Source: a virus
Taxonomy: Duplodnaviria > Caudoviricetes
Length of the DNA stretch: 64,000 nt
Virus record (IMG/VR): IMGVR_UViG_3300032236_001024
Location: 32,001-96,000 of that record
Direction: 5' to 3' (one strand)
Numbering within the stretch: position 1 is the first letter of the stretch; each line of letters begins with the position of its first letter. Shown piece by piece: positions 26,458 through 64,000 of the stretch. Both the position numbers and the translations under genes were made by a program. Below the pieces are notes generated by a model that was given only the letters and a program-made list of their open reading frames with translations, did no database searches and was not told the origin of the DNA.

Positions 26458-29091
26458 ATGTCATTAGAAATACGTCATATAGAATTTGTGGGTGATGGAG
26501 AAACTACACGTTTCAATACAGGAATACGTGATATCAATTCTACCAATCTTTTAGTATTTGTCAACGGGTTTATTCAAGCCCCTGGCGTTGATTATCAAGC
26601 TGAATATTATGATGTTTCTTTTGCAGTTGCTCCATTTCTTGGTTCTGATATAGAAATTCGTTATATTAACACAACTGATGTTGGTTATCAAGGTTCTGTA
26701 GGTTATCAGGGTTCTCAAGGATTAGATGGTGCAGAAGGATTACAGGGTCTTGATGGTGTTCAAGGACCAGTAGGTTATCAAGGTTCGACTGGTGAACAAG
26801 GTCCAGCTGGAACTCCTGGTGGTGAAAAAGGTTATACTGGTTCTGAAGGTATAGGCTACACTGGTTCAATAGGTATTGGTTATGCTGGTTCTAAGGGAGA
26901 GGCTGCAGCCCCAAGATCGAGTCAATTAATAACAACAGACAGTGGTTCTGTTTACATTTTAAATGAATATGTTTTAGATTCTAAACATATCATTGTAACA
27001 TTAAATGGTCTTGTACAAATTCCAAATGTAGATTATGTTGTCTTAGATGGAAATCAATTAACATTTTATTCACAAGTTTATCCAAATGTAAATCTCGAAA
27101 TTAAATATTTTGGACCTGCGCCAAGTTATCAAGGATCAGTTGGATTTGTAGGATCAGTTGGTTATCAAGGTTCTATAGGATCAGTTGGTTATCAAGGTTC
27201 TACTGGTATTGTTGGATATAGTGGTTCTGTTGGTGAGCAAGGACCACCAGGTGGTGAAAGAGGATATGTAGGTTCGATAGGTTATACTGGTTCTACTGGT
27301 GCAGGATATACTGGTTCTATAGGACCATCTGGCGCACCAAAAATAACAAAATTATTTACTGCTAATGGTACTGACACATTATTTGATACTGGTGAAACTA
27401 TTACAGAAGCAACAAATGTTTTTGTTATGGTCAATGGTCTTGTTCTTATTCCTAATACAGATTATACAATTGTTGGTGGCACAAAAGTTAATATAACATC
27501 CCCACCATATAGTAGTTCTACTGTTGAAATTAGAATATTTCAATCGGCTGGTTATATTGGTTCAACAGGTTATTATGGGTCTGTTGGATATCAAGGTTCA
27601 GCTGGTGTTAGCTATGTCGGTTCATCTGGATTTGTTGGTTCGGTAGGATTTGTCGGTTCAATTGGTTATCAAGGTTCTATTGGTTATACTGGTTCCATGG
27701 GTCCAATGGGACCACCTAATGGTTATACAGGTTCACAAGGACCAATTGGATATCCAAAAGAAAATCAAGTAATAACTGTAAATGGTACAGATCATATATT
27801 CAATTTAAATAAAAAAATAGACAATACTAAGTCAATATTCGTTTTTATTAATGGTCTTGGTCTTGTTCCAGATGATGATTATACAATAGTAAATGATGGA
27901 ACCCAAATATCTCTAAACACAATACCTTTTAATGGTTCTACAATTGAAATAAGATATTTTGCTGATGCAACTGGTTATCAAGGATCATCTGGTTATAAAG
28001 GTTCAGAAGGTTATCAGGGATCATCTGGATATAAAGGTTCGGAAGGTTATCAAGGCTCTGTAGGTTATCAAGGATCAAAAGGTGCGACCGGAGACCCTGG
28101 TGGTCCACAAGGATATACTGGTTCAGTTGGATATGTTGGATCAATAGGAACAGGTTATGCTGGATCGCAAGGTCCAGCGGGATCACCAAAAGCAAAACAA
28201 GTATTTACAGCTGATGGTATAGTTAAGACTTACACATTGAATACAAATGTTGAAGCTACTCAATCAATATTTGTTATGCTTAATGGTTCTGTTCTTATTC
28301 CAGATGATGACTATACCATTCAAAATAATAATACTCTTATTTTGAATGCATTACCAACTAAAAATTCTAGTATTGAAGTAAGATATTTTGGAAGCACTGG
28401 TTATATTGGTTCTTCTGGTTATCGTGGTTCAGTTGGATATCAAGGTTCAGCTGGTGCAGCTGGTATTGCACAAGCATATGTTTCACCATTTGCTCCTTCT
28501 GTTTCAGAAAGAATTCCTGGCGAATTGTGGTGGGATACTGATAATGGTATTTTAAACATTTATTATGATAGTGAAAAAACTTGGGTAGGACTTGCGGAAG
28601 GACCAAGAGGACCATATGGTTATACTGGTTCGGGTGGATTGGGTTATACTGGTTCAATAGGTATTGGTTATGTCGGATCATTAGGATACACTGGTTCAGT
28701 TGGATTTATTGGTTCAGTTGGTTATGTAGGTTCTAAAGGTTATGCCGGATCATTAGGATTTACAGGATCGATTGGATTTGCAGGATCAGTTGGTTATGTT
28801 GGATCAATTGGTTCTGTAGGTTATGTTGGATCAAAAGGTAATGGTTATAATGGCTCATTCGGATATACTGGTTCTATTGGATATACAGGTTCATCTGGGT
28901 ATATTGGTAAAGATGGTTATTCTGGTTCTGTAGGATATACAGGATCAGTTGGAGATGTTGGAGAAATTGGTTATACTGGTTCGAAAGGATATGGTTGGAC
29001 TGGTCCAGATATAACTATAACAATTTCTACTTTGTTGCCGCCCATTTCTGGTGGAAAAGATGGTGATATATGGTATAGGTATACAGTATAA
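26458..29091 (+). CDS. Collagen-like (GYxGSx) fibre protein with five V.xNG..(Q/L).P..DY small beta domains
   Basis: Five repeats of F..DG...F...LVFVNG...P..DY...F...P..GS.IEIRY separated by Gly-X-Y runs; PGELWWDTD module; C-terminal GGKDGDIWYRY. Confidence 0.8.
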   Translation: MSLEIRHIEFVGDGETTRFNTGIRDINSTNLLVFVNGFIQAPGVDYQAEYYDVSFAVAPFLGSDIEIRYINTTDVGYQGSVGYQGSQGLDGAEGLQGLDGVQGPVGYQGSTGEQGPAGTPGGEKGYTGSEGIGYTGSIGIGYAGSKGEAAAPRSSQLITTDSGSVYILNEYVLDSKHIIVTLNGLVQIPNVDYVVLDGNQLTFYSQVYPNVNLEIKYFGPAPSYQGSVGFVGSVGYQGSIGSVGYQGSTGIVGYSGSVGEQGPPGGERGYVGSIGYTGSTGAGYTGSIGPSGAPKITKLFTANGTDTLFDTGETITEATNVFVMVNGLVLIPNTDYTIVGGTKVNITSPPYSSSTVEIRIFQSAGYIGSTGYYGSVGYQGSAGVSYVGSSGFVGSVGFVGSIGYQGSIGYTGSMGPMGPPNGYTGSQGPIGYPKENQVITVNGTDHIFNLNKKIDNTKSIFVFINGLGLVPDDDYTIVNDGTQISLNTIPFNGSTIEIRYFADATGYQGSSGYKGSEGYQGSSGYKGSEGYQGSVGYQGSKGATGDPGGPQGYTGSVGYVGSIGTGYAGSQGPAGSPKAKQVFTADGIVKTYTLNTNVEATQSIFVMLNGSVLIPDDDYTIQNNNTLILNALPTKNSSIEVRYFGSTGYIGSSGYRGSVGYQGSAGAAGIAQAYVSPFAPSVSERIPGELWWDTDNGILNIYYDSEKTWVGLAEGPRGPYGYTGSGGLGYTGSIGIGYVGSLGYTGSVGFIGSVGYVGSKGYAGSLGFTGSIGFAGSVGYVGSIGSVGYVGSKGNGYNGSFGYTGSIGYTGSSGYIGKDGYSGSVGYTGSVGDVGEIGYTGSKGYGWTGPDITITISTLLPPISGGKDGDIWYRYTV

Positions 29092-30521
29092 TGCCTGTGT
29101 ATGTAAAAAAAGATAATAAATGGCAAATCGTTGCATCTTCATATAATGAGCCATCACCAACATTATTTAATAATGTGAACGGCGAATGGAGAGAAACTAG
29201 GTCTGGATGGGTAAATGTAAAGGGTGAATGGCAAAAATTTTATCAAAAAACTCCTATGGTAAAAAATAAATTAAAAAATTTTGTTTTTTTAGGTGATTCA
29301 TTATCATATGGAACTGGATTGCCAGTAAGTCAACAATTCACAACATTAATACAAAATCATTTTAATGGAATTGATAATAATGGAAATAATAATGTTGTTA
29401 GATCATTGATGGTTGATGATAGATCAACAACTGGAGGAGAAAATAGATTTATTACATCTTCTGGTGTTAAATATACTAATACTGGCATTTTTTCTCCTGT
29501 ATATGATGATAAAAGAATCAGAAATACAGCAATAACAATACCAGCTGGAGAGTATATTGATATACCTGTAAATAAAGCAAATGGTAAATTATTTAATATA
29601 TCTGTCAGTGGAAAAAATTTTGTTGGTGAGATAAGTTCTGTATGGTTAACTTGGCAGTTTGGTACTCGTGGTTATTTTGAAAATTTAATTTTACATGAAA
29701 CAATAGATAGTAATATTACAACACATGGAAATGTATATTATGGGAATCCGCTTTATGCTAATTTTTGGGGTGGTGATACTGAAAATTTTTATGATTATTC
29801 TATAGATTTCGATTCAAAAGCAACTTATGTTAGAATAAAAGTTACTTCTGGTGAATTACGAATTAATTCTGTTCATAGTATGTCAAATTTTCCACTTTAT
29901 GCATCAGAAAAAAATGTTGGTATTGTTCAAGTAATTGCTAGAGATGGTTATACATTCGAAGATTTTCTTAATGTTCCAAGACAAGAAATTAGAAATAATA
30001 TTCTATATAAACAATATTATGATGATAATACAAATAGTAATGCTACCCCTGTTCTTATAGTCCAAGCTGGACTAATGGATATAGTAAAATTAGGTCGAAA
30101 TGCATTAGATTTTTTTCAGTATTTAGAATACGGAATTTTATTACATCATACTCCAACTAATGATATAGTATATGGAGGATATTCGACAGATTCTAATAGT
30201 ACAAGTATTACAGCATATGATATTGTTTTAACAATACCTCACCCACCAAGTCAATTAAGTCCTTATTTTAAAATTTATAATGAAAACATAAAAGCTATAA
30301 GTGATGTATTTCATTTAATGGCTAATAGACATAATTTGGATGTAGTCGATTTAAGTACACTAGATATGGGGATAGATTGTTATCAACTTACTCTTGATAG
30401 AATAAACCCAAATTACAAAGGTTCTGTAAAAATAGCAAATAAATACATTGAGGATTTAGGTTTAGCTTCATTCCAAAACAATTCAAGTCAAGAATACTTA
30501 TTACCCGCTAGAGGATTATAA
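29091..30521 (+). CDS. SGNH/GDSL-hydrolase-fold protein with fibre-docking-type N-terminus; catalytic His appears lost
   Basis: FVFLGDSLSYG (block I), ARDG (II), QAGLMD (III), LDRINPNYKG (V); N-terminal YVKKDNKW..WVNVKGEW motif. Confidence 0.7.
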   Translation: MPVYVKKDNKWQIVASSYNEPSPTLFNNVNGEWRETRSGWVNVKGEWQKFYQKTPMVKNKLKNFVFLGDSLSYGTGLPVSQQFTTLIQNHFNGIDNNGNNNVVRSLMVDDRSTTGGENRFITSSGVKYTNTGIFSPVYDDKRIRNTAITIPAGEYIDIPVNKANGKLFNISVSGKNFVGEISSVWLTWQFGTRGYFENLILHETIDSNITTHGNVYYGNPLYANFWGGDTENFYDYSIDFDSKATYVRIKVTSGELRINSVHSMSNFPLYASEKNVGIVQVIARDGYTFEDFLNVPRQEIRNNILYKQYYDDNTNSNATPVLIVQAGLMDIVKLGRNALDFFQYLEYGILLHHTPTNDIVYGGYSTDSNSTSITAYDIVLTIPHPPSQLSPYFKIYNENIKAISDVFHLMANRHNLDVVDLSTLDMGIDCYQLTLDRINPNYKGSVKIANKYIEDLGLASFQNNSSQEYLLPARGL

Positions 30522-30529
30522 AAAAATAA

Positions 30530-33500
30530 ATGGCACAATTAATTTTTCCAGATAATCCTTTAATTGGGGCTACAACTACTACTGGTGGTTATGTTTGGCA
30601 GTGGGATGGAGAGCGTTGGTTAAAAGTACCAACTGATTATCGTGGTTCTGCCGGATATGTCGGATCATTTGGTTATACTGGTTCTACTGGTGCTGGATTT
30701 ACAGGATCAAGAGGATTTGTAGGTGCTCCTAGTGCAATTCAAATAATAGAATCGACAGGTGCAAGTTCTTACACTCTTGATAGATTAGTTGCAGATGCAT
30801 TATCATTATTCGTTATTGTAAACGGTTCTTTCTTAATAGCAAATGTTGATTATACTGCTTCTAGTAGTACAATAACATTTAACAATATTCCACAAACAAA
30901 ATCTAATATCGAAATTATATTTTGGGATGTAGCTGGTTATTATGGTTCAACTGGTTATCAAGGATCAGCAGGTTATACTGGTTCTGCTGGTGTTGGATAT
31001 ACTGGTTCTGTTGGTGCTGTTGGTTCTGTAGGTTATCAAGGTTCTGTTGGTGTACAAGGACCACCAGGTGGTGAAAGAGGATATGCTGGTTCTAAAGGTG
31101 ATAGAGGTTTCTTTGGCTATAGCGGTTCATCTGGGTATATTGGTTCACAAGGTGATATAGGTTATACTGGATCAGCTAGTACTGTTGTAGGTCCACAAGG
31201 TCCACGAGGTATAAATCCATCAAAAGGAATAGATTTATATAATTCATCATCATATCAAAATTTAACTGGCGTTACAGTAGATACTGCTACAAATTTAAAA
31301 CAAACTGTTGATAGTACTATTAATGATGCTGGTATTGATAATGTATTTTATTTTAATGGTGATGGTGAAAGATATGTTGAAGGCGTATACAAATTAAATT
31401 TATTTGGTTATCAAAGCGTTTCATTATCAGTATACAGTGGTGATGGGCTTTGGGCTCCAATTCCAACAAATCCTATACTTATTGAATATTCTATTGATCC
31501 TGATAATTATGGATGGCAAAATTTTGCTATTATTAATCCATCATTATTAACTATAGGTTTATGGAATACATTAACATTTAATATTCCAAATGAAGCAAAA
31601 AATCCAACTGGTGTTTATTTCCGTTATATCCAATATGTAAATGGTGGAATTGGAAAAGATAATTATCTTTTAACTGATTTAGTTTTAAATCCATTAATTG
31701 GTTATACTGGATCGCAAAGTTATACTGGTTCAGCTGGTTATACTGGTTCGTCTGGTTATCAAGGATCAATCGGTTATTCTGGTTCTGTTGGTGATACTGG
31801 TGGCACTGGTTATCAAGGTTCAGAAGGCTATCAAGGTTCAGAAGGTTATCAAGGGTCTGTTGGATATACTGGTTCTACAGGTAATCGAGGAATTCAAGGT
31901 GAAATAGGTCCAAAAGGTGATACAGGTGATACTGGTTATCAAGGATCAGCAGGATTTAGAGGACAAACAGGATTTAAAGGTTCATATGGTGAACTTGGTG
32001 AAACTGGTTATCGTGGTTCTGTTGGTTATCAAGGTTCTGTAGGTGATAAAGGACCACAGGGAGACCCTGGTGGTCCAAGAGGTTATGCTGGTTCAGCTGG
32101 TTCTGGTTATGCTGGTTCAGCTGGTGCTGGATATACTGGTTCGATAGGTATTGGTTATGCTGGTTCAAAAGGTGATTCAGGATTTTCTGGTTCACGAGGA
32201 AATCAAGCTTTAAGCAATTTAAAATATAATTGGGCTAATTTTATTAATTCCGTTACAGTAGATAGTGGTCAAGTAAGACCATTTGCTGGTACTTCTCTTT
32301 CTAATATAAGCACACTTGCATTAAGTAAAACAACTTCAGATGGAATTGGTGTATCTACTTATCTTTCACAATTATTTCTTGGCTCTAGCAATGATACTAA
32401 AAATGTAAAAGGTTATATTTTTCTTAATAAAGAAAATGGCACCGTTGCAGAACAAACTATTCTTAAAATTACAAATATTACTAGTACTAATGAAGCAATC
32501 GTATTTTCTTTAGAATATGTTAGTGGTTATAGCGGAACTTATTCTGAAGATACATCTATAATTATTTCATTTAATACAATTTCTATTGGTTATTCTGGTT
32601 CTGTTGGATTTACTGGTTCTTTTGGGTTTGTTGGTTCGCAAGGTTACACTGGTTCCAGAGCATATACTGGTTCACAAGGTGGCACTGGTTACACTGGATC
32701 AGCTAGTACTGTTGTAGGACCACCAGGTCCAAAAGGTGATACTGGTGAATATGGAGCAGTTGGTTTTACTGGTTCAAGAGGATTACGTGCAGGAACTGTA
32801 AGATATTGGTCAGGTGGTGCTAGTGGTTCAACTCCTGATACATATCATTTAACATTTGATGGATCACTTATTAGATTACAGGTTGCAGATTTAAATTATG
32901 TAGATTACACTTTTTCTCAAACTAGTGGTTGGAGAATTCTTGGGCAACTTATAAATTCAGTGCCAGTTATATATCCAACTCAAGTAAGAGGTATTCTTTA
33001 TGTAATTCCTGTTATAGATTATCCAAGTGAAGACAAACTTTGGACTCCTAATGTATTTGAAGTAAATAGTTCAGCTACATTAGGATACAATCAATTTGGA
33101 TCATTCTTTCAATTTAATATAAATCATGTTGCTGGTCAAAATGAATACTTTGAAGGAAAACAAGTTGAACTATTATTTGTTCCATCTGGTGAAACCGGAT
33201 TTACTGGTTCTAGAGGTGAACAAGGTGATCCTGGTGATCCTGGAATAAGAGGTTATACTGGTTCTGCAAGTACTACTGGTGGTTATACTGGTTCAAGAGC
33301 TTATACGGGTTCAGCTGGTTATGTCGGATCAGCAAGTACTATTCCTGGTTATAATGGCTCTAAAGGAGATACTGGATATACTGGATCAAAAGGTCTTGAT
33401 GGTGTTTATGCTGCATTAGGTTATACTGGTTCTCAAGGATTACAAGGACAAGATGGTGGAACAGGATTTACTGGTTCAGTTGGACCCAGAGGTGTAGGTT

Positions 33501-36500
33501 ATGATGGATCAAGAGGTTCATTAGGTTATACAGGTTCAATTGGATTTACTGGTTCTAGAGGATATACAGGGTCATCTGGATATGGCGGTTCAGTTGGTTA
33601 TGATGGATCAAGAGGTTATGACGGTTCGATAGGTTACACTGGATCACAAGGTGCTGGTTATACTGGTTCAGTTGGATATGATGGATCGAAAGGTGATCTT
33701 GGGTATACAGGATCAATAGGGTTTTCTGGTTCTAGAGGTATTTTTGGTTATTCTGGTTCAGTTGGTTATGCTGGTTCCGGTGGATTGGGTTATACTGGTT
33801 CAAGAGGCTCTGGTTATACTGGTTCAGTTGGGTATGCAGGATCAATAGGTGATCTTGGTTATACTGGATCGATAGGTTTTTCTGGTTCAAAAGGTGATAT
33901 TGGAACATTAGGATACGATGGATCAGTTGGATATACTGGTTCTAGAGCATATACTGGTTCTATAGGTTATACTGGTTCAAAAGGTGAAATTGGTTATGCT
34001 GGTTCTAGAGGTTTACTTGGTTACACTGGTTCAGTTGGTTATGTTGGTTCACAAGGTATTCCCGGTGCTTATGCAGCATTAGGATACACTGGATCAGTTG
34101 GTATTGGTTATACTGGTTCTGTTGGTGCTGGATATACTGGTTCAGTTGGATATGATGGATCAAAAGGTGATCTTGGTTATACAGGTTCTATAGGCTATAC
34201 TGGTTCAGTTGGTTATGTTGGTTCGCAAGGTATTCCCGGTGCTTATGCAGCATTAGGATACACTGGATCATCTGGGTTTGTTGGTTCTAGAGGATTACTT
34301 GGATATACTGGATCATTAGGTTACACTGGATCATTCGGTTACACTGGTTCCCAAAGTTATACAGGTTCAACTGGATTTGTCGGATCATTAGGCTATACAG
34401 GATCAATTGGTGTTGGATATACTGGTTCACAAAGTTATACTGGTTCAACTGGATTTATTGGATCGAGAGGTGATCTTGGTTACACTGGTTCTAGAGCATA
34501 TACTGGATCAATTGGTTATACTGGCTCTCAAAGTTACACAGGCTCTGTCGGATTTATAGGTTCAGCTGGTTATGTTGGATCGTTAGGATATACTGGTTCT
34601 ACAGGAATAGGTTATACTGGATCACAAAGTTATACTGGTTCAACTGGATTTGTCGGATCAAAAGGTGATCTTGGATTTACTGGTTCAAGAGGTGCTGGAT
34701 ATACTGGTTCTGTTGGCTTTGTTGGTTCTGTTGGCTTTGTTGGATCAAGAGGTGATATTGGATATGCTGGTTCTCAAGGTTTACAAGGTATACCTGGAAT
34801 TGCTGCAGCAATTGGATATGTTGGTTCACAAGGTCCACAAGGACCAGCTGGTGGTTATACAGGTTCTAAAGGTTACAACGGTTCATTAGGATATGTTGGA
34901 TCAAGAGGATTTGCTGGATCACAAGGTCCACAAGGAATAACTGGTTTTGTTGGTTCATTTGGTTATACAGGTTCACTTGGTAAAATTGCTGGTGCAGTCA
35001 GATTTACTGGTGCAAGCACAGTTGGTTCTTCTTCGAGTGGCACTCTTCCAAGTATTGGTGGATTTCAATTTGATACTAATAATGCTCTAACTACAACTAC
35101 AATTGAAATCAATAAAACTGATACTTTTGGAGCATCAAATTTACTTTCTGATATTATAAATTCAAATAATAATGCAATCAAAGGTCAGTTGTATGTTACT
35201 TCTAATGATGGTTTATATACGACTGTATATAATGTTACAAGTGGCGAATATGTACCAAATCTTTCTGGTAGTAGAGATTTAGATTTTACAAGATTAAAAG
35301 TTTCTTATTTAAGTGGGTATACAGGAACATTTACAAATATACCGGCTGATATAAGTTTCATTCCTACTGGACAGCAAGGTTATACTGGTTCTTCTGGATT
35401 TGCTGGGTCTAGAGGAGTACTAGGTCCAACAGGTTATGTTGGATCAGTAGGATTTGTTGGGTCGAGAGGTATTGATGGTGCATATGCAGCATTAGGTTAT
35501 ACTGGATCAAGAGGATATGTAGGCTCTATTGGTTATACCGGATCAATCGGATTTACTGGATCATTTGGATACACTGGTTCATTAGGTTATACCGGATCAA
35601 TCGGATTTACTGGATCATTTGGATACACTGGTTCGCAAGGTATTCCTGGTGCTTATGCAGCAATGGGATATGTTGGTTCTAGAGGTAATACTGGTTATAT
35701 AGGTTCTCAAGGATTACAAGGTCCACAAGGACCAGCTGGTGGTTATACTGGTTCAAGAGGAGCTATTGGTAGAACTGGCAATTCATTAAATTATACTTTA
35801 TTTGATTATCGATATACTATAACAAATCCTGGTGAATTTATACACAATAATGGTACTGTAGAATTATCTACTCAAGTTATATTTTCAAAATATGATAATT
35901 ATTATGTAACTGGTTTTGATTATTTTAATGGGCTGTTAACTCCAAATACTAATGAAAGAATAAAAGCCAAACTTATACTTACTCTCAGAAGAGATTATGA
36001 AAATTTTTCACAAGATTATTTAACAGTATTTAATGTTTTAAATATTGTAGATGCAGGTGATACATTCATTATTAACGTAGAATATGTTAGTAACGGTTGG
36101 CCTGAAATTTATGATCCACATACTATTGATGTTACTCTTATACCATATAATAATGGATATACTGGTTCTGATGGTTATACAGGTTCAATCGGATATACAG
36201 GTTCACAAAGCTATACTGGATCAAAAGGATATGCAGGTTCATTAGGTTATACTGGGTCTAGAGCTTATACTGGTTCACAAGGTTATACTGGCTCACAAAG
36301 TTATACGGGATCGTTTGGTTATACTGGTTCAATCGGATTTACTGGTTCAATTGGATACACTGGATCACAAAGTTATACTGGTTCATTCGGTTATGCTGGT
36401 TCACAAGGTGATCTTGGTTATACTGGATCACGAGGACCAATTGGTTATGCTGGTTCAAGAGGTTATTCTGGATCATTAGGTTATTTTGGTTCATTCGGAT

Positions 36501-41022: not shown

Positions 41023-41048
41023 CATTAAAATAATGAACAGAGTTTTTT

Positions 41049-42353: not shown

Positions 42354-42860
42354 ATGGAATTTAATAGAGTAACACTGGATTTTGTAAATAAAAATTGTAG
42401 TATTTCATTAAATGGAGTAAACCATTTATTCAGTTCAGTTGATAAATTTATGTCATTGTCTGGTTATCCATTTACTGATACACACCTTGTATTTTTTGAG
42501 CCAGAAAGAGGAATTTTTGTTGTAGAAAGATCAGGACCAATTACTGTTGCTGGTGAAAATATAGAAGAAATTCAATGGATAAATTCGAATAGAGATAATT
42601 TAATTCAAGCAGCACATAATGATGGTTATGGTAATGTCGAATTATCATATATGCCAACATTACAACAAATTAGAGATCAAAAATTATATGAAACTGATTG
42701 GATGGTGACTCGTCATAGGGATCAATTGGATTTGAGTATGTATCCAACTTTATCAAATATCCAATATCAAAATCTATTGACATATAGACAAGCTTTAAGA
42801 GACATTACAAAAGTATATAACAATCTTGATGATGTAGTTTGGCCTTTGCTAGATATTTAA
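42354..42860 (+). CDS. Tail fibre assembly chaperone (Phage_tail_APC/Tfa-like C-terminus)
   Basis: IRDQKLYETDW..R..D...L....Y..L..YRQALRDIT...VVWP; AGGAG Shine-Dalgarno upstream. Confidence 0.75.
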   Translation: MEFNRVTLDFVNKNCSISLNGVNHLFSSVDKFMSLSGYPFTDTHLVFFEPERGIFVVERSGPITVAGENIEEIQWINSNRDNLIQAAHNDGYGNVELSYMPTLQQIRDQKLYETDWMVTRHRDQLDLSMYPTLSNIQYQNLLTYRQALRDITKVYNNLDDVVWPLLDI

Positions 42861-52896: not shown

Positions 52897-52903
52897 TCAT
52901 GAA

Positions 52904-52911
52904 TATAAATA
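52904..52911 (+). promoter_or_regulatory. T4-type late promoter TATAAATA
   Basis: Exact consensus in the 42-nt gap before the ATG at 52939. Confidence 0.7.
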
Positions 52912-52938
52912 CAATATCAATTATGTATGGGTAAATAA

Positions 52939-55900: not shown

Positions 55901-56211
55901 CAGTTGGATATATTGGTTCAGTAGGTTATGTTGGTTCAGCTAGTACTGTTATTGGTTATACTGGATCAGCTGGTTCTGGCGGTTCTGGTGGTTCTTGGAC
56001 TGGTGGAACTATGTCCAATACAGTCTATTTTTCCAACACAGCCGCATCAACTAATAACGTATCTGGTGCAGTTACTGTTCTTGGTGGTCTTGGTGTGAAT
56101 GGTAATATATATACTGCAAGTCGTGTTGGATTTGCTAACTCAGGTAATACTGGTGTAGCATATACATATTATAATGAAGTTTTGAACTCAATTGATACGG
56201 TATTTGGTTAA
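52939..56211 (+). CDS. Fibre with Mtd_N/hyaluronidase-type N-terminus, NATYAFGKTESNLNV repeats and collagen-like run
   Basis: IQIQLRRGTAAQW...N.ILA..E..IEIDT..FKIGDG...WSDLPY; HPSVRLTT..LDGV...GDRIL..NGIY.V..TR..DYD fibre domain; C-terminal YN....SIDTVFG. Confidence 0.85.
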   Translation: MAIQIQLRRGTAAQWATANTILALAELAIEIDTSLFKIGDGLTHWSDLPYGGIRGFTGSRGDTGYVGSYGYTGSRGYTGSFGYTGSQGITGYVGSQGYTGSYGYTGSQGYTGSQGITGYVGSQGYSGSYGYTGSQGYTGSYGPIAGSNTQVVFNDSGIAGGSAGLTFNKNNYTLTTNSIIANTFSGTSNNSTYAFGKTEIALNVNTSLVSNNSTYAFGKTEIALNVNTALVSNNATYAFGKTESNLNVNNATTANNSTYVYGKTEIALNVNTALVSNNATYAFGKTESNLNVNNATYAFGKTESNLNVNNATYAFGKTESNLNVNNAVTANNSTYAFGKSEINLNVNNSLTSNNTTYLNGQLSSYYTNASNISTGTLGASRLPYAMNQGVSTTSSVTFANVSITGGTVATTPQYSTDIVNKQYADAIATGINFHPSVRLTTTQTFDSSTATYYNGANGVGATITDNSPYIALSLDGVTAAYGDRILMRGSSNSVWNGIYTVSNTGSGSYPWIMTRSYDYDQVGTGTNEIDQGDLIYVTAGSTLAGTSWVQQESVNTIGTDAISFVQFSSKALFALSSGSGLYYSAGGAFDGSAASTLAVNTSYIGTLTANNATYAFGKTESNLNVNNSTYAFGKTESNLNVNNATYAFGKTESTLSVNNALYLNGVAASYYVNTSASYTITGIHTHNANIVLGSIGISANGSYGTDTQVLKANSTGGVFWGTGVSGYTGSQGNLGYTGSYGYTGSQGYAGSTGYVGSQGNLGYAGSTGFVGSTGYVGSQGYAGSTGYVGSQGYAGSTGYVGSQGYAGSTGYVGSTGYVGSQGYAGSTGYVGSTGYVGSQGYAGSTGYVGSTGYVGSQGYAGSTGYVGSQGYAGSTGYFGSTGYVGSSGTNGYSGSVGYVGSSGSVGYVGSAGTNGYTGSVGYVGSAGTNGYTGSVGYVGSSGSVGYVGSAGTNGYTGSVGYVGSAGSNGYSGSVGYFGSTGYTGSSGSVGYIGSVGYVGSASTVIGYTGSAGSGGSGGSWTGGTMSNTVYFSNTAASTNNVSGAVTVLGGLGVNGNIYTASRVGFANSGNTGVAYTYYNEVLNSIDTVFG
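53490..54040 (+). repeat. In-frame 16-22-aa repeats (N(A/S)TYAFGKTE(S/I)(N/A)LNV); exact 48-bp copies start at 53773 and 53821; further copies ~54760-54940
   Basis: Direct reading of DNA and protein. Confidence 0.85.
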
Positions 56212-59200
56212 TGGCAGTAGCATCTAGATTAGATTCAGTTGGTAATTTCACGGTAGCCAATACAGGTATATTGGATGAAATATCATCATCTGATCCTAAT
56301 CAGTATAGTGTATACTCTACTAGCAGCAATAATAGTTATCTTTCTATATCAAGTGCGTCTGTTCCTGCAACTGGACCATTCACAATTGAAGCATGGATAT
56401 ACACAACAGTTTCAGCTACTCAAACAATATACAGCCAATATCTACAAAGTGGTGATGCTAATAGATGGCATTTTTCTATAGATAATAATACTGGATATAA
56501 ATTATCTTTTTCTCATGGTACAGCAGCAACAGCTTGGGGAAGCACAGTAGTTCCATTAAATCAGTGGAATCACGTTGCAGTAACAAGAGATTCTAGTAAT
56601 AATCTAAGATTTTTCTTAAATGGCGTATTAGATGGAACAACAGCATCGTATACTGCTACTCTCAGTCAGAATGCTCCAAGAATAAGTGGATTTCTTAATA
56701 CTGGTGTTAGCCAGTATAATTTTCAAGGATATATTTCTAATTTTCGTATTGTCAGTGGAACAGCTGTATATACTAATTCATTTATACCATCAAAAGCACC
56801 ATTAACAGCAATACCTAGTACAGTATTACTTACTTGTCAATCATCTACTTTTATTGATAACTCATCATCAGCAAAAACAATAACTAATGCTGGTCTAGTA
56901 ACTACATACCTACCACCACAATCAGATTTCTATGCTGCATCCTTTAATGGTAGTTCTCAATATATTTCTATACCTAATGCAGCTGGTGTAGCAAGTTATG
57001 CTAGTGATTTTACTGTAGAATTTTGGATGTATCCAACAGCTTTAGTATCTGGCACATATGGATTAGCTGGTCAATATAGACTTTCTAATGGTAGGTCTTG
57101 GTTAATAACTGTTGGCTCAAATGGATATATTCAAGTAAGTAATGGCACAACAGCATCAGGTAGTTATGTTGGCGCAGCTGTAGTTGGTGCATGGACGCAT
57201 GTTGCATGGGTTCGAAGTGGATCAATTTGGTATCTTTATATCAATGGTATTCAACAGAGCAGTCCTGCTTCAAATGGAACCCCTGCAGCAAGTACTGAAA
57301 ATATTATTATTGGAGCAAATGGTGATGCTGCAAGTCCTACTTGGTTTTTCCCTGGTTATATTTCAAACTTCCGTATTGTAAAGGGTACAGCATTATATAC
57401 TGGTGCTTTTAAACCAGATATTAATTTTACACCTGTATCTGGTACATCTGTTCTTACATTACAAAATTCTTCATTAGTAGATAACTCAACTAATATATAC
57501 ACAATAACTAACAGCACTAGTGTTACGTCATCGCTTATAAGATCACCAAATTTTCTTACAACTGCATCACAACAATCTTTTGATGGCAATCATAAAGTAG
57601 GTGGTATATATGATGAGGTAACTATTACACCGTCTAATCAATATGCTACTTCTTTTAGTGGTAGTAGTCAATACATATCAGTTCCATCTGGCCCTTTTGT
57701 AATAGGAACAAGTAATTTTACTGCTGAATGTTGGATAAATTCAAACAATTTAGCATCAAATCCAGTATTCATAGATAACTGGGCTCTTGCATCTGGTAAC
57801 TTAACAGGTCAATGGCAATTAACAGCTAATGCTACTACAATAACTTTTTGGTATGGAACTGGAACTAATACTCAATCATCTGTATCTGGTTCATTTGCTT
57901 TTTCTGCAAATACCTGGTATCACGTAGCAGCTGTCAGAGAAGGAACAGGTACAAATCAATTTAAAATATATGTAAATGGTAATGTTGTTGCAACAGGAAC
58001 TATATCAGCAAGTTTAGGTGTTAGTGTTGCTGGTAGTATTGGTAGACAAACATCTAATCAATTTTTTATGGGTGGTTATATTTCTAATGTTCGTGTAGTT
58101 ATAGGAACTGCAGTATACACTCGAAACTTTATACCTCCGGTTGCACCATTAGCTGCTGTACCTGGAACAACTTTGCTTACCTGTCAAAATGCAACCACAG
58201 TTGATAACTCATTTTATGCATACTCACTTACAAATAATAGTACGACAGTTTATAATCCGCCATACCCAACTTTTTATGCTACATCGTTTAGTGGTTCTGG
58301 ACAATACCTTGATACTCCTAGTAGTGCAACGCTAACACTAGGAACTGGTGATTTTACTATTGAATCATGGGTATATTGGAAAGGTGGAGCAAATAGAATA
58401 GTAGGTGGTAGTGGTACTAATGATACTGTTTTCAACGTTGTTATGGACGTTGCAAATGATGGCAGCTTTAATTTTGGTGGATGGACAACAGGTACAAAAT
58501 CTACCCTCAAGATTACACAAAATACATGGAATCATTTTGCTTGGACTAGAGTAGGAACAACAGAAAGATTCTTTGTTAATGGTGTGTTGAGTGATACAGT
58601 GACTCGTAGTTTTAATTTCAGTGCAACTACTTCTGTTGGTATAGGACACATAACAAATACAAATGGTCTTTGGAATGGTTATATCTCAAATCTCCGTATT
58701 GTTAAAGGTTTATCATTATATAACTCTGCTTTTACTCCATCTCAAACAAATCTAACAGCTGTAACAGGAACAGTACTGCTCACATGTCAAAATGCAACGA
58801 TTATCGATAACTCAACTAATGCATTTACTATAACAAATACTGGAACCGTGACCGTTCTTCCTGCTGCTCCATTTACTTCTGTCAGACAGCAATACTCTTC
58901 TGGCGACTATCTTGTTAGTGGAGTATTTGATGAAGTTACAGCTATAAATGAATCTTATAGTGCATCGTTTAATGGTAGTAGTCAGTATCTTTCTTTTACA
59001 GGAACTTCTTCTGTACAACTGTCAGGTAGTCCTTTTACTGTTGAATGTTGGATTAACTTAACTGGATATTCAGCAGGATATGGTCCTTCTTCTAACGTGT
59101 ATGCTGGTGCTCTTTTCTGGAATGATTATGCAGGCGGCGGTAATGGTTTTGAATTAGTACTAGCAGGTACATCATCATCTTGGACAAGTATATATTTTTA

Positions 59201-60242
59201 TTCAAAATCATCTGGCGCCCAAACAAATAATATATTAAAATCTTATGCGTTTTCGTTAAATACTTGGTATCATGTTGCTGTTGTTTCTAATGGTTCTACT
59301 CTTACATTCTATGTAAATGGTACATCAATTGGTTCTGGTGCGATAACAACTTGGACGGATACAACAACATATGCTATTGGTGGCGGTGGTAACTCGCCAT
59401 ATGGTTATTATTTTCCTGGATATATGTCAAATTTTCGAGTTGTAAAAGGTATTGCTGTTTATACTGGTAATTTTAATCCTCCACAATCACATCTAACAGC
59501 TGTTCCTGGAACTTCGCTTCTAACTTGTCAGTCAAGCACATTGGTAGACAATTCAACAAATGCATTTACAATAACTAATAATGGTTCAGTAACAACATAT
59601 AAACCACCATATTCACCATTTTATGCTGCATCGTTTAATGGTAGCAGTCAGTATTTAAGAGTTGCAAGTAATGCTGCCTTTTCTATGGGAACTGGTGATT
59701 TTACTTTTGAATTTTGGATTTATCCAACATCATTTGCTACCGCTTCGTTTCCATTAGACCTAAGAGGTGGCGTAACATTAAATCCAGCTCCATTATTTTA
59801 TATGGACACTACTGGAGCTATGGTTTTGGGCATACCCAATGGTGCAACAACTGCATATCCAGCGTCTGTACCATCGCTCACTTTAAATGCTTGGAATCAT
59901 GTTGCTTGGGTAAGAGCATCCGGATTTACATCTGCGTATTTAAATGGTGTTTATTCCAATGGTAGTGCAGATACTAACACATACGGACAATATGGTGTTA
60001 GTATTGGAGCCACAGGTGGTTCTGCTGTAAATTTATTTCCTGGATATATATCAAATCTTCGTATAGTAAAAGGCGTTGCTGTTTATACTTCAGCATTTAC
60101 ACCTCCCACTAGTCAATTGACAGCAATATCTGGTACATCATTACTTACTTGTCAATCTAGTACGTTAATTGATAATTCAACCAATGGATTTACTATAACA
60201 AATACAGGATCAGTATCAACAGTTCCTCGTGAACCGTTCTAA
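56211..60242 (+). CDS. Putative receptor-binding protein with six LamG/concanavalin-A-like domains
   Basis: Six units of SF.GS.QY...GDFT(I/V)E.W(I/V)Y...W.HVA..R...Y.NG...GYISN.R(I/V)V.G.A.YT..F.P...LLTCQ...DNS. Confidence 0.88.
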   Translation: MAVASRLDSVGNFTVANTGILDEISSSDPNQYSVYSTSSNNSYLSISSASVPATGPFTIEAWIYTTVSATQTIYSQYLQSGDANRWHFSIDNNTGYKLSFSHGTAATAWGSTVVPLNQWNHVAVTRDSSNNLRFFLNGVLDGTTASYTATLSQNAPRISGFLNTGVSQYNFQGYISNFRIVSGTAVYTNSFIPSKAPLTAIPSTVLLTCQSSTFIDNSSSAKTITNAGLVTTYLPPQSDFYAASFNGSSQYISIPNAAGVASYASDFTVEFWMYPTALVSGTYGLAGQYRLSNGRSWLITVGSNGYIQVSNGTTASGSYVGAAVVGAWTHVAWVRSGSIWYLYINGIQQSSPASNGTPAASTENIIIGANGDAASPTWFFPGYISNFRIVKGTALYTGAFKPDINFTPVSGTSVLTLQNSSLVDNSTNIYTITNSTSVTSSLIRSPNFLTTASQQSFDGNHKVGGIYDEVTITPSNQYATSFSGSSQYISVPSGPFVIGTSNFTAECWINSNNLASNPVFIDNWALASGNLTGQWQLTANATTITFWYGTGTNTQSSVSGSFAFSANTWYHVAAVREGTGTNQFKIYVNGNVVATGTISASLGVSVAGSIGRQTSNQFFMGGYISNVRVVIGTAVYTRNFIPPVAPLAAVPGTTLLTCQNATTVDNSFYAYSLTNNSTTVYNPPYPTFYATSFSGSGQYLDTPSSATLTLGTGDFTIESWVYWKGGANRIVGGSGTNDTVFNVVMDVANDGSFNFGGWTTGTKSTLKITQNTWNHFAWTRVGTTERFFVNGVLSDTVTRSFNFSATTSVGIGHITNTNGLWNGYISNLRIVKGLSLYNSAFTPSQTNLTAVTGTVLLTCQNATIIDNSTNAFTITNTGTVTVLPAAPFTSVRQQYSSGDYLVSGVFDEVTAINESYSASFNGSSQYLSFTGTSSVQLSGSPFTVECWINLTGYSAGYGPSSNVYAGALFWNDYAGGGNGFELVLAGTSSSWTSIYFYSKSSGAQTNNILKSYAFSLNTWYHVAVVSNGSTLTFYVNGTSIGSGAITTWTDTTTYAIGGGGNSPYGYYFPGYMSNFRVVKGIAVYTGNFNPPQSHLTAVPGTSLLTCQSSTLVDNSTNAFTITNNGSVTTYKPPYSPFYAASFNGSSQYLRVASNAAFSMGTGDFTFEFWIYPTSFATASFPLDLRGGVTLNPAPLFYMDTTGAMVLGIPNGATTAYPASVPSLTLNAWNHVAWVRASGFTSAYLNGVYSNGSADTNTYGQYGVSIGATGGSAVNLFPGYISNLRIVKGVAVYTSAFTPPTSQLTAISGTSLLTCQSSTLIDNSTNGFTITNTGSVSTVPREPF

Positions 60243-60248
60243 TAAATA
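60241..60248 (+). promoter_or_regulatory. Late-promoter-like AATAAATA
   Basis: NATAAATA variant overlapping the upstream stop, before the ATG at 60272. Confidence 0.45.
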
Positions 60249-60271
60249 GATAAAAGCAAACAGGATTAACA

Positions 60272-60904
60272 ATGGCAAAGCTTCAAGGTGGCACAAGAAT
60301 ATATGGTACAGCTAACGTAGATTCAAATCTCTACGTAACTAGCACAGTCAATGCTGCATCATTTACTATTGGTTCAAACTTTACTGCAAATACTACTAGA
60401 TTGGGAATAGGTGTTCCTATTCTAGCTAACAATGCTATTGGTACAGCTGGACAAGTTTTAACATCAAATTCTACTGGTGGACTATATTGGTATATTGGTC
60501 CAACTGGTTATTCTGGTTCTGTTGGATATGTAGGATCGACAGGATATGTAGGATCGGTTGGTTATTTTGGTTCTGTTGGATATGTAGGATCGACAGGATA
60601 TGTAGGATCAGTAGGTTATGTAGGCTCTGCAAGTACTGTAATAGGATATACTGGTTCTCCTGGTACTGGCGGTGGTGGTTCTGGTAACGGATATACTGGT
60701 TCAGCTGGATATACTGGTTCAGCAGCAGGACCAATTGGATATACTGGTTCTCCTGGTAGCGGTGGTTCTGGTGGTGGTTTCTCCAATGGTCAATCAATTG
60801 CAGTTGCAAATCTAGCGTTTACAAATTCTACATCTAGTAGTACAGGAATAGCGTATATGTTTGTTAACACAGTTTCTTATAGTATTGATACGGTTTTTGT
60901 ATAA
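60272..60904 (+). CDS. Short collagen-like adaptor fibre
   Basis: GYVGS/GYTGS run; C-terminal AYMFVNTVSYSIDTVFV resembles the end of 52939-56211. Confidence 0.75.
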   Translation: MAKLQGGTRIYGTANVDSNLYVTSTVNAASFTIGSNFTANTTRLGIGVPILANNAIGTAGQVLTSNSTGGLYWYIGPTGYSGSVGYVGSTGYVGSVGYFGSVGYVGSTGYVGSVGYVGSASTVIGYTGSPGTGGGGSGNGYTGSAGYTGSAAGPIGYTGSPGSGGSGGGFSNGQSIAVANLAFTNSTSSSTGIAYMFVNTVSYSIDTVFV

Positions 60905-63900
60905 TGGCTAACACAGTAAGTAAAGTAGCAAATACTGGTATAATGTATACCAAAGGTGAAATTGATGAATTGTCAATTAATCCAAATGCTCAAGGTAGTA
61001 TATCATTTAATGGTAGTAGTCAATATTTAAGTTTACCAGCTAGTAGTGCTTTTGCTTTTGGTACTGGCGATTTTACTATTGAGTGTTGGGTTAATCCAAC
61101 AACAGCTCCAATTTCAACACCCGTAGCATCAACAGTTAAAGCAATATATGGTTATAGAAATGGCGCTGATACGCTTCCATATTTATATTGGGCGTTTACA
61201 GGTGGCGTTTCATTTGCTGGAGATATAACGACATATTTAGCTTCTAACGTACAATTAACTTTAAATGTTTGGACGCATATTGCTGTTGTTCGTATAGGCA
61301 CAGCAATGAATATGTATATCAATGGAACTTCTGTTGCTTCTAACTCAAGTGTAACACAAAATTTTAGCGATTCAGCAAATGTTAGATATGTTGGATTTTT
61401 TAATGGTACAAATGGTTATTATTGGCCAGGAAATATTTCAAATTTACGTATTGTCAATGGCGTAGGTGTATACACTGGAGCCTTTACTCCTCCTACACAA
61501 CAATTGCAAAAATTACAACTTGCAGGAACAAACATTGCTGCTCTTACCAATTCTGCAAATACATCGTTATTATTGAATACATTATATAATAATGCATTTA
61601 TTGATTCAAGTGATAATAATTTTACAGTTGCTAATACAGCTTCACCAACATCAACACCACAACAACCATTTAATCCTGATGGTAATTATTCATATAATAC
61701 AAATACATCTAGTACTACATCTGGTGCATATATAACTGCTCCAGCGAATGTAAACTATGCATTTGGTACTGGCGATTTTACTGTTGAAGCTTGGGTTTAT
61801 ATAACAACTGCAGCTGGTTCATCAGCTTTTTTTGGACCTTGGACAGGAACAGCTTCAACTAGTGCATGGGTTTTTACACAAGGCGCTACTGCAACAAATC
61901 TTAGGTTTGGTGTTTCAAATGGATCAGCAACTACGTTTGTTGAAGGTACTGGTGGTTTAACATCAATAAACAAATGGATTCATATTGCAGCAGTAAGAAT
62001 AAGCGGAAACATAGTATTATATTCAGATGGTGTTTCAGTTTATTCTGGAGCATTATCGCAAAATATATCTGTATCTTCACAGGTATTACAAATTAATGGT
62101 ATTAATGGCTTAACATTTTTAACAACTGGATATATTTCCAATGTAAGAGTTGTTAAAGGTGTAGGTGTATACACTGGAACCTTTACTCCACCAACTACAC
62201 CATTAAGAGCAATACAATCAGCTGGAGCAAATATTGCTGCTATCACAGGAAATACAACAGTATTTACAAGTTTGCTTACTTGTCAATCAAAAACTTTAAA
62301 AGATAATGGCGCTAATAACGTTACGTTATCTGTTCCATCAACAATAAAACCAGTTCTATATTCGAATACAATACCATTTTCTAATGTATCTTTTGCAAAT
62401 AGTGGTTTGCCTGTAAGTAAACATTATAGCAACGGGGCATTACAAATAGTTGGTTCATTAGATGAAGTATCATTGAATACAAACATGGCTGGTAGTGTTA
62501 GTTTCAATGGTACAACTCAATATTTGGTTCTGCCATTGAACGAAGCATTTAATATTGGCACTGGTGATTTTACTTTTGATGCTTGGATAATGCCAACAAA
62601 TGCTACTATTCCACAGTGGGCGTGTATTTTTGGTGGTGTTAACTATGGTTCATCTTCAGATTATGTGTTTCAAGCTGGTTCTGGTCCCAACGTTGGTAAT
62701 TATCCGTATGCGAATTTTACTAACTCACAGGCAGATAATATAAATTCTTCTGTTGCATTAGTGCCATTTAAATGGCAGCATATAGCTTTAAGTCGTAAAT
62801 CTGGCGTCACAGCTATGTTTATTGATGGGGTTTTAACTGGAACTTATTATAACCCAAATAATTCTATGAACAATACTTTACAAAAGGGTATTGGTGGTGG
62901 ATATAATGGTAACGTCAATACATTGTTCCCTGGGTATATTTCTAATGTTCGTCTAGTTAAAGGATTAGCAGTTTATTCTGGTATATGGAATTCGCCAACT
63001 ACAGCATTAACAACAACGAGTCAAAATGCTACTGCTGCTCAGGTAAGTTTATTAACAGCTCAGTCAGCAACTATTGTTGATAATTCTACTAATGCATTTA
63101 CCATTACTAACAATAATACAGTTACAAGCGGCAATTCAATAATACCATTTGCTAGCACATATAGTTATCAGTTTAATGGAACTAGTCAATACTTAACTGT
63201 TCCTAATAATGCAGCATTTCAATTTGGTACAGGTGAATTTACCGTAGAATGCTGGGTTTATCCAACAGCAGCTGCTGATGCTGCAATATATTCTAAAAGA
63301 GCAACAAGTTCTATTTATGCTGGCGTCAGTGTACACACCACAGCAGCGGGATTTTTTGCTGTATTTTTAGCAAATGCTGGTGGTACTGCTTGGACAATTA
63401 GTAATACTACAGTTTCAGCTTATTCTATTAATACTTGGTATCATATTGTAGTAACGAAAAAAACTACATTATATGGTTCACATATTTATTTTTATGTTAA
63501 TGGTTCTCTTAAATATAGAGGCACTATGAATACTGGTGCATCAGTTGCAATTTTTGATGATGCTGCTGCAGTAGCAATTGGAGCAGGTTCATCAACAACG
63601 CCATCATTTTATTTTCCAGGTTATATATCAAATCTTCGTGTTGTTAAAGGTACTGCGTTATATCAGAACCAAACTATATTTACTCCGCCATCTAGATCAT
63701 TAGACACAACACAACAAGCAAGTGCAAATATTGCAGCTATTACTAATAAATCTCAAGTTAGTTTGTTATTAGAAACAGCAAAACTTAATTATATTGATAC
63801 AAGCTTGTATAGTCATGCAATAACAAAAGGTGGAACACCTCCTTCATCTGTACAAAGTCCATTTTTAACAAATCCAAGTGGTTATTTTAGTAATTTATTT

Positions 63901-64000
63901 AATGGAACATCACAGTATCTTTCTGTTCCAAACGGTGCTGTGTCTAGTTTAGGAACAGCAACTGATTTCACTTTAGAAGCTTGGATATATCCAACTACAT
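60904..64000 (+). CDS. Second LamG-array receptor-binding protein (3'-truncated; absent from ORF track)
   Basis: ATG overlaps the upstream TAA; reads MANTVSKVANTG..KGEIDELS..FNGSSQYL..GTGDFTIECWV; the same frame gives TDFTLEAWIYPT at the window end; at least four LamG units plus the start of a fifth. Confidence 0.85.
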   Translation, partial: MANTVSKVANTGIMYTKGEIDELSINPNAQGSISFNGSSQYLSLPASSAFAFGTGDFTIECWVNPTTAPISTPVASTVKAIYGYRNGADTLPYLYWAFTGGVSFAGDITTYLASNVQLTLNVWTHIAVVRIGTAMNMYINGTSVASNSSVTQNFSDSANVRYVGFFNGTNGYYWPGNISNLRIVNGVGVYTGAFTPPTQQLQKLQLAGTNIAALTNSANTSLLLNTLYNNAFIDSSDNNFTVANTASPTSTPQQPFNPDGNYSYNTNTSSTTSGAYITAPANVNYAFGTGDFTVEAWVYITTAAGSSAFFGPWTGTASTSAWVFTQGATATNLRFGVSNGSATTFVEGTGGLTSINKWIHIAAVRISGNIVLYSDGVSVYSGALSQNISVSSQVLQINGINGLTFLTTGYISNVRVVKGVGVYTGTFTPPTTPLRAIQSAGANIAAITGNTTVFTSLLTCQSKTLKDNGANNVTLSVPSTIKPVLYSNTIPFSNVSFANSGLPVSKHYSNGALQIVGSLDEVSLNTNMAGSVSFNGTTQYLVLPLNEAFNIGTGDFTFDAWIMPTNATIPQWACIFGGVNYGSSSDYVFQAGSGPNVGNYPYANFTNSQADNINSSVALVPFKWQHIALSRKSGVTAMFIDGVLTGTYYNPNNSMNNTLQKGIGGGYNGNVNTLFPGYISNVRLVKGLAVYSGIWNSPTTALTTTSQNATAAQVSLLTAQSATIVDNSTNAFTITNNNTVTSGNSIIPFASTYSYQFNGTSQYLTVPNNAAFQFGTGEFTVECWVYPTAAADAAIYSKRATSSIYAGVSVHTTAAGFFAVFLANAGGTAWTISNTTVSAYSINTWYHIVVTKKTTLYGSHIYFYVNGSLKYRGTMNTGASVAIFDDAAAVAIGAGSSTTPSFYFPGYISNLRVVKGTALYQNQTIFTPPSRSLDTTQQASANIAAITNKSQVSLLLETAKLNYIDTSLYSHAITKGGTPPSSVQSPFLTNPSGYFSNLFNGTSQYLSVPNGAVSSLGTATDFTLEAWIYPTT

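Follow-up and report, generated by a model that had tools for sequence, protein, structure and literature searches.

The 64,000-nucleotide window analysed here covers bases 32001-96000 of a viral record of 202,141 bp, which has direct terminal repeats and comes from a large uncultured T4-type phage. It contains a cluster of genes for fibres built from collagen-like stalks and separately encoded head proteins. T4-type baseplate hub and wedge proteins are encoded in the first 23 kb of the window; the closest cultured relatives of its gp6-like wedge protein are just 33-41% identical, and a megablast search with 12.6 kb against cultured phages returned no nucleotide match. From position 26458 on, fibre genes run throughout on the plus strand, and we refer to them as A to L in order (Table 1). 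Translation of the open reading frames (ORFs) located six stalk-head pairs and four TAATG stop/start overlaps exactly where the initial annotation had placed them, with the protein ends and starts as it had read them. On the minus strand, beyond the window, there is a seventh pair. Pfam Collagen (PF01391) is matched by A, C, E, H, I and K with E-values from 1.5e-5 to 4.9e-174, the match of K (25.1 bits) falling under the Pfam cut-off of 27.2, and the Mtd_N domain of I occupies residues 5-42 (E 7e-11, 42.3 bits against a cut-off of 26.3).

Table 1. Fibre genes and associated features. Positions are those of the window unless marked as genome positions.
Feature	Position	Strand	Length	Description
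ATAAATA	26409..26415	+		49 nt before stalk A
ATAAATA before other stalk genes	30439 (C), 41016 (E), 44067 (H), 52905 (I), 60242 (K)			
Stalk A	26458-29091	+	877 aa	Collagen repeats; T7 tail-fibre N-domain-like segment; type-1 end ITISTxxPxxGGxDGDIWYRYTV
Head B	29091-30521	+	476 aa	Starts MPVYVKKDNKW; three V.V.G.W hairpin-like repeats, residues 1-52
Stalk C	30530-39826	+	3098 aa	About 1540 residues in G-x-y runs; ends ..SWYATYSGKGY
Type-2 end domain of C	roughly 39490-39823	+	last ~110 residues	Modelled as T4 gp10-like beta-sandwich
Head D	39826-41019	+	397 aa	HxH/collar-type tip; starts MFGAS
Stalk E	41049-42338	+	429 aa	Short collagen run; C-like type-2 end domain; ends ..SWYGALSGKNFI
F	42354-42860	+	168 aa	Tail-fibre assembly chaperone; Pfam Phage_tail_APC 3.6e-7
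Head G	42865-44070	+	401 aa	HxH/collar-type tip; paralogue of D
Stalk H	44107-52896	+	2929 aa	About 1460 residues in G-x-y runs; type-3 end NLDGGDPTSNYGGITSIDAGGV
Middle piece I	52939-56211	+	1090 aa	Mtd_N connector, collagen, type-4 end ..NSIDTVFG
Head J	56211-60242	+	1343 aa	Connector ..RLDSVGNFTVANTGILDEIS, then six Laminin_G_3 domains
Short stalk K	60272-60904	+	210 aa	N-terminus MAKLQGGTRIYG; type-4 end ..YSIDTVFV
Head L	60904-64000, to 64662 in genome	+	1252 aa	Connector VANTGIMYTKGEIDELS, then five Laminin_G_3 domains
Seventh pair, stalk	genome 21214-22260	-	348 residues	Collagen protein with C/E-type end domain; outside window
Seventh pair, head	genome 19590-21197	-	535 residues	D/G homologue directly after its stalk

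The transcriptional layout of the cluster separates stalks from the genes that follow them. The motif ATAAATA, which resembles the T4 late promoter, is strongly depleted in the window (17 seen, 47.5 expected). Each of the six stalk genes (A, C, E, H, I and K) is preceded by one at a distance of 30-91 nt; ahead of B, D, F, G, J and L, the genes downstream of the stalks, there is none within 120 nt. From this distribution, we infer the units A-B, C-D, E-F-G, H, I-J and K-L. The TAATG overlaps lie at A/B, C/D, I/J and K/L, and one-base stop/start overlaps of this kind are found at 4/6 stalk-head junctions compared with 25/197 other same-strand junctions (Fisher p = 0.004), or 29/203 genome-wide. 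Coupled expression of this sort fits 1:1 complexes without proving them. Four one-base overlaps, together with a type-1 end and start that resemble a motif contiguous in other fibres (below), could also be read as recoding, with frameshifting or read-through producing stalk and head as one polypeptide. We regard this as highly improbable: homologous junctions elsewhere vary in spacing (-8 to +54 nt), we saw no slippery sequence at the junctions of this genome, and one-base overlaps are common between unrelated genes in this genome.

Within the genome, the type of stalk end and the kind of protein that follows go together. If seven stalks and seven heads in classes of 1/3/1/2 were ordered at random, pairing by class would arise in 12 of 5040 arrangements. 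However, the same within-genome pattern would result if two-gene cassettes had been duplicated in tandem, and therefore only other genomes can decide on the pairing. The cassettes might then have been duplicated and inherited as units without any docking, each head being a fibre or enzyme in its own right that binds the baseplate or some other place, and the stalk ends being distal tips. Paralogous cassettes do lie in tandem here, overlapping start and stop codons are common in the genome at large, and the head-to-next-stalk junctions D-E and G-H look just as coded as the stalk-head junctions, with homologous head ends before homologous FPxNP..WxWDGxRW stalk starts. These reverse junctions are, however, not retained in distant loci.

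In other genomes, the stalk-head pairings are conserved, with other stalks and other head bodies, which bears out the initial annotation on one of the points that it had named as able to refute it. A 157-kb record (G001, 94% complete) whose head proteins are 37-47% identical to those of this phage retains A-B, again with TAATG, as well as C-D, E-F-G and H-I. Its I homologue ends differently, without SIDTVF and without a LamG (laminin G) gene next, and the whole record is devoid of Laminin_G_3; thus, the type-4 end and the LamG head are present or absent together. Homologues of F lie between a stalk and an HxH tip in this record also, and in a second relative (G002).

The type-2 end (..TD..T..T..G.SWY..SGK) of C, E and the seventh stalk turned out to be a domain of ~110 residues, more than a short motif. 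The ends of C and E had been called homologous, and they are (49% identity over 150 residues). Several PHROG families named 'tail fiber protein' match it over their C-terminal ~100 residues, and 343 cultured-phage records contain a match. We sampled ten of these, from two T7-like phages, a Grimontviridae podovirus, a Seoulvirus jumbo phage, a phi92-like phage, rV5, an Erwinia Ounavirinae phage, a Vibrio myovirus, an Arthrobacter siphovirus and a Halorubrum virus. Mostly short fibres carry the end in these records, it lies at the extreme C-terminus in 10/10, and a further gene follows at a spacing of -8 to +4 nt. That gene belongs to one family of ~900-1000-residue proteins (27-73% identical) in eight of the ten, and the stalk N-termini differ. 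The same two-gene cassette, a short gp10-like-ended fibre plus a ~900-1000-residue 'tail protein', is thus found in eight unrelated cultured lineages (L033-L039, L042), namely Aeromonas and Yersinia T7-like phages, Cronobacter A24, Salmonella SPLA1a, the phi92-like phiWec188, rV5, Erwinia Rouille and Vibrio D509, a distribution which suggests that the two genes have moved horizontally together. No Pfam match was obtained for the large protein in the two of eight that were scanned. Among the T7-like members, the short fibre has a T7 tail-fibre N-domain according to the annotation of Atoyac15 (Aeromonas), the Yersinia record reading just 'tail fiber protein'; since such a fibre combines this N-domain annotation with a type-2 end, the large next protein (~930 residues) would hang on the virion through it.

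We next turn to the fold of this domain. An AlphaFold2 (AF2) model of the last 150 residues of C, computed from a 22-row alignment, is a beta-sandwich (predicted local distance difference test, pLDDT, 84). Nine of its ten best VIA matches (Z 5.0-8.2) are phage tail or capsid-spike proteins, among them CBA120 TSP4 (residues 78-179, Z 6.3-6.9) and T4 gp10 (residues 49-152, Z 6.7), with a root-mean-square deviation of 3.1-3.6 over 90-98 residues for these two, and T4 gp9; the tenth is E. coli StcE (Z 6.8), and the next match, an unrelated fold, has Z 2.8. Foldseek alone gave E-values of 1.8e-3 or weaker, and a PDB sequence-profile search with the type-2 end gave nothing, so the gp10-like assignment is by fold only. 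On the strength of this model, the type-2 end is a 'T4gp10-like branching domain' as modelled by Latka et al. (PMC6872550), a known docking fold shown experimentally to hold a second receptor-binding protein (RBP) via a conserved N-terminal peptide of the latter (PMC13352976). We consider the type-2 pairs a known joint in a new setting, where docking is argued from fold-level homology to an experimentally tested system.

What follows the type-2 end is variable. A downstream partner is adjacent in three pairs of this genome, in its relatives, in 10/10 cultured phages and in at least ten viral contigs. In viral contigs, HxH/collar tips follow the end only in the wider kin of this phage, Laminin_G_3 proteins follow it in at least ten others, and a Gly-rich/collagen protein does so once. 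Of the LamG heads placed after the domain, 5/7 start with MF, as D does, compared with 2/39 other LamG heads. The initial annotation had proposed that the motif type of each stalk end predicts the class of head; with LamG proteins after the type-2 end in at least ten viral contigs and a ~950-residue tail protein after it in eight cultured lineages, a strict code of this kind fails. LamG heads, for their part, are preceded by at least five kinds of upstream end. What stands of the proposed code is that the stalk C-terminus co-varies with the N-terminal connector of the next protein. The partly supported form of the code would accordingly join connector to connector, leaving shafts and bodies free to vary.

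The heads D and G are homologous (26% identity); besides HxH motifs, they share a collar core (WYxCxGQ..TPxLxxRY) and a YEP end. The label 'triple-collar' previously given to such proteins proved too strong, as D has a single weak match to Collar (PF07484; E 0.0012, 19.2 bits, below the cut-off of 24) along with several HxH motifs, and G has no match. Combined with the third paralogue in a profile, D and G matched the tail-fibre tip chains 6ov6 (1e-4) and 9nxk (3e-3) only weakly; tblastn with D against cultured phages gave one weak collar match, and a single-protein scan of viral contigs with D gave none. D and G are collar-like, and we do not assign them to T4 gp12-type Collar tips.

The H-I junction was examined head-first, by collecting Mtd_N starts. 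This yielded 80 loci. Fifty-three genes in viral contigs were left after removal of identical end/start pairs (the sole sense of non-redundant here and for type 4) and of loci lacking a readable ORF upstream. Forty of the 53 Mtd_N genes are of a MA(I/V)QIQ subtype and 13 of a MANR subtype, the latter being the kind found in T4-like cyanophages and preceded by a small coiled-coil ORF. Upstream of the MA(I/V)QIQ genes, the full end DGG-x(3-8)-Y(G/I)(G/N)-x(3-7)-(D/N)xG was present in 28/40, with a gap of 3 nt or less in 19 of these 28 loci, and DGG occurred within the last 40 residues of the upstream ORF in 35/40. The full end was absent before all 13 MANR genes and from all 54 ends that precede LamG genes; in the phage's own genome, it marks H alone out of 206 ORFs. 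As a background, DGG is found in the last 30 residues of 4.6% of 1134 distinct ORF ends, type-3 cases included. Mtd_N was located at residues 5-43 in all ten heads checked, and the bodies and lengths of these proteins differ. In a small sample of cultured phages, every non-MANR case (5/5) has a ..DGGxx end directly before the Mtd_N gene: Cellulophaga phi19:2 gp029/gp030 (an SGNH hydrolase), Arthrobacter Zaheer gp31/gp32, Streptococcus pyogenes prophage Javan488 (endopeptidase/HylP), Gordonia Splinter gp26/gp27 and Xanthomonas Seregon. A tblastn search with the 37-residue end of H against cultured phages returned nothing significant. From these end/start patterns, the H-I pairing appears general among tailed phages. 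We did not find the pairing of a DGG end with Mtd_N described in the literature searched, a failed search being no proof of absence.

The type-1 junction was traced by scanning with B, which recovered close kin and three distant contigs (L047, L048 and L049). In all three, the fibre ends in ..IT(I/Y/A)..(S/T)..P..GG.(N/D)GD(I/Y)(W/Y/I)xxx, the next start lies at -1 to +3 nt, and the next protein starts with M-x-(I/M)-Y-V..G.W and has three V.V.G.W units. Their stalks are unrelated to A, and the heads are Gly-rich domains or a 176-residue protein, unlike the body of B. Taken together, the type-1 end and start resemble P..P..GD.W.D....L.VY...W, which other fibres of the data set carry unbroken; this suggests a fibre motif whose loop is interrupted by the stop and start codons and whose halves would rejoin by strand complementation. 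A complex prediction from alignments, run without controls on the end of A (45 aa x3) and the start of B (65 aa x3), gave a score of 0.13 (mark 0.32) and weighs neither way.

B itself had been annotated as an SGNH protein. It has an FLGDS block I, with a match of this block to a PDB esterase (E 0.012), and a GxxD block, so a weak likeness to SGNH stands, but no Pfam match was found at 0.01 and block V departs from the family. At residues about 430-440 of B, an Asn replaces the catalytic His of SGNH block V: the block reads DRINPN in B, DGINPN in a 75% relative (L043) and DGLHPN in the orthologue from G001. B may therefore be a binding-only, esterase-dead head.

For the type-4 junctions, we examined 46 non-redundant LamG heads with readable upstream ORFs. 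In two of them (L051, which is also metagenome locus L157, and L066), the upstream ORF ends in ..NSLDTV(W/F)(V/G), with stalks of 217 and 1166 residues. The same two heads have a J/L-like start (..NTG.. / ..(I/F)DE(L/V)), which is seen in 0/44 other LamG heads, and these others come after at least four other kinds of end. In this small sample of sequences, the type-4 pairing is exclusive in both directions. A scan with the ends of I and K alone recovered none, and a metagenome scan for type-4 ends recovered nothing beyond the L051/L157 lineage. We considered whether the J and L starts might be a degenerate Mtd_N, making type 4 a variant of type 3, and rejected this on finding no Pfam hit at E 10 and an hhalign probability of 0.1%. 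'ANTG' alone was likewise rejected as a docking motif. NFT(V/I)xNTG recurs between the LamG repeats inside J and L and at the C-terminus of J, and thus 'ANTG' belongs in part to the first strand of a LamG unit; what is peculiar to the N-terminus is the ..(I/F)DE(L/I/V)(S/T) that comes after it.

Taken as a whole, these observations probably reflect multi-part fibres, in which stalks and separately encoded heads are docked by four connector standards. Each unit would comprise a collagen-like trimeric stalk with its own late promoter and a co-transcribed distal protein, which would plug its N-terminal connector onto the C-terminal end of the stalk. The first standard would join a ..P..GG.DGDIW end to a module of three V.V.G.W hairpins (A-B), and the second a gp10-like beta-sandwich end to a short N-terminal peptide (C-D, E-F-G and the third pair, outside the window). 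The third would join a ..DGG..YGG..IDAGGV end to an Mtd_N domain (H-I), and the fourth a ..S(I/L)DTV(F/W)(G/V) end to a ..NTG..(I/F)DE(L/I/V) start (I-J and K-L). Since I has both an Mtd_N start and a type-4 end, H-I-J would form a three-piece chain, though I-J has a promoter of its own. For types 1, 3 and 4, docking is proposed from comparative genomics. The fibres so formed may be separate appendages or branches. As the connectors are conserved across unrelated phages and the shafts and heads are not, they would act as portable joints for exchanging heads and shafts.

Several points weigh against multi-part docking in addition to the possible cassette duplication and the reverse junctions described above. 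The H-I gap is 42 nt long and has a promoter-like motif inside it. With Z between 5 and 8, the structural match to the gp10-like fold is of middling strength, and the heads after type-2 ends do not start uniformly (MF.. in D, ML.. in G and MA.. in the third). Type 4 has just two outside lineages, and no single-ORF fusion of junction types 3 or 4 was seen in the small set of sequences gathered. Even so, adjacency without docking seems unlikely to us. The same end/start pairs occur with unrelated shafts and head bodies in distant phages, the short fibre of the T7-like Aeromonas and Yersinia phages would carry the large next protein, and the type-2 fold is a known docking domain (PMC13352976).

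Exchange at the junctions invites another explanation, in which they are kept as linkers for module shuffling at the DNA level and the proteins do not touch. In the distal fibre genes of T-even phages, conserved boxes serve module shuffling, and here shafts and head bodies are swapped exactly at the junctions. However, conservation is at the protein level (25-45% identity) with no nucleotide similarity to cultured phages, and one junction partner is a folded domain of ~110 residues with a known docking fold. Linker and docking roles are in any case not mutually exclusive, and we think it quite improbable that linkers are the whole account. Overall, we favour docking over these alternatives because ends and starts stay paired amid exchange, conservation is at the protein level, and the spacing varies from -8 to +54 nt.

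A broader proposal, which we advance only tentatively, is that types 1 and 3 are general and so far undescribed plug-and-socket standards of tailed phages. For type 3, a ..DGG..(YGG)..DAGG cap would seat the Mtd_N of the next protein in phages of Proteobacteria, Bacteroidota, Actinobacteria and Firmicutes, HylP included. For type 1, a fibre motif split in its loop would join stalk and head by beta-strand complementation.

Other fibre genes show recurrent ends and starts of their own. K and two Gly-rich proteins after L (genome 96689-97432 and 97435-98142; L010) have a common start, MAKL.GG.R.YG, which comes after three different upstream ends, so the upstream neighbour does not explain every start. 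The two Gly-rich proteins and a collagen protein at genome 15394-18567 (minus strand) end in ..(I/V)(I/V)(I/F)EY after long Gly-rich stretches (PHROG 863). In viral contigs, a further pair (L139-L141, L148 and L150) consists of a fibre ending in ..SGGxSxGK(A/S)IAMA(L/M)(V/I)FG(G), followed by a protein of ~118 residues starting MA(A/N)PN(I/L)(V/L)N. Two more pairs recur: ~120-residue proteins ending in ..(C/A)(S/T)(Y/W/F)E.I(S/G) before LamG genes, and ends of the form ..TILCVG.NT(Y/F)VI.G.G(L/I/V)(T/F) before Gly-rich heads. The seventh pair is followed at genome 18575-19578 (minus strand) by proteins of 207 and 124 residues and then by another collagen/Gly-rich fibre, an order that is the same in L016 and L020; the 124-residue protein starts MSQQPVARLGDTSDHGG and is PAAR-like in appearance, judged without a family search. 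Between the baseplate genes and the fibre block lies the sole long minus-strand ORF of the window (23551-26391, 946 aa), and the gap at 26392-26457 has ATAAATA motifs on both strands.

The scale of the fibres is unusual. Taking 0.286 nm per residue, the usual rise of collagen, triple helices formed by the G-x-y runs of C and H would be roughly 0.44 and 0.42 µm long, and ~0.4 µm is about three times the length of the T4 long tail fibre. The middle of H (residues 1178-2288) is ~1100 residues of non-collagen sequence, and around 48000-50000, in this middle part, GC is lower and GC skew is inverted.

Fibre tips set the host range of phages. If it were known which end motif goes with which tip, multi-gene fibre clusters of uncultured phages would become readable as assemblies, not as lists of hypothetical proteins. 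Of the four connector pairs, one (type 2) is already known, and we did not find the other three described. Mtd_N, the most common N-terminal fibre domain, would gain a candidate partner, and the connectors available for head swapping would reach beyond the gp10-like domain and conserved peptide already used in phage engineering. If types 1 and 3 are indeed general, the end of a gene would predict its binding neighbour, and heads would be transferable between phages by matching connectors.

The closest known arrangements are the anchor/branching-domain systems, such as the K1-5 gp37 adaptor, G7C gp66-gp63.1, KP32 gp37-gp38, the KP34 adaptor-gp57 and CBA120 TSP1-4, in which the first fibre protein carries a T4 gp10-like domain and an anchorless second RBP comes from the next gene (PMC6872550; PMC13352976). 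The type-2 pairs are alike in fold and gene order, with connectors reused and bodies varying. They differ in that the putative docking domain stands at the very C-terminal end of collagen-like stalks of up to 3098 residues, so the joint would be end-on at the fibre tip, not a side branch near the virion, and in that the heads are HxH/collar tips, not depolymerases. Types 1, 3 and 4 have no detected relation to the gp10-like domain. Phage phi92 also has a virion with many different fibres, although these are tailspikes and short fibres instead of long collagen stalks, and its gp140 has no assigned role there (PMC13450770). In our comparison, homologues of gp140 have the type-2 end, with the large tail protein immediately after.

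In T4, the long fibre is made of gp34-gp35-gp36-gp37, and gp10 holds gp11 and gp12. The part played by gp10 and gp12 has been summarised (PMC6872550). As in T4, the trimers proposed here would be separately encoded and joined in gene order, a chaperone gene lies within the cluster, and a collar/HxH protein resembling a short fibre goes with a gp10-like domain. The differences are that no sequence homology to the gp34-37 joints was detected, that the shafts here are predicted collagen triple helices, and that this phage has at least six kinds of fibre compared with two. In Mtd of the Bordetella phage BPP-1 and in HylP of streptococcal prophages, Mtd_N (PF18454) forms the N-terminal end of the distal trimeric fibre protein. 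I starts with the same domain; in place of a C-type lectin or hyaluronidase body, however, it has collagen and a further connector end.

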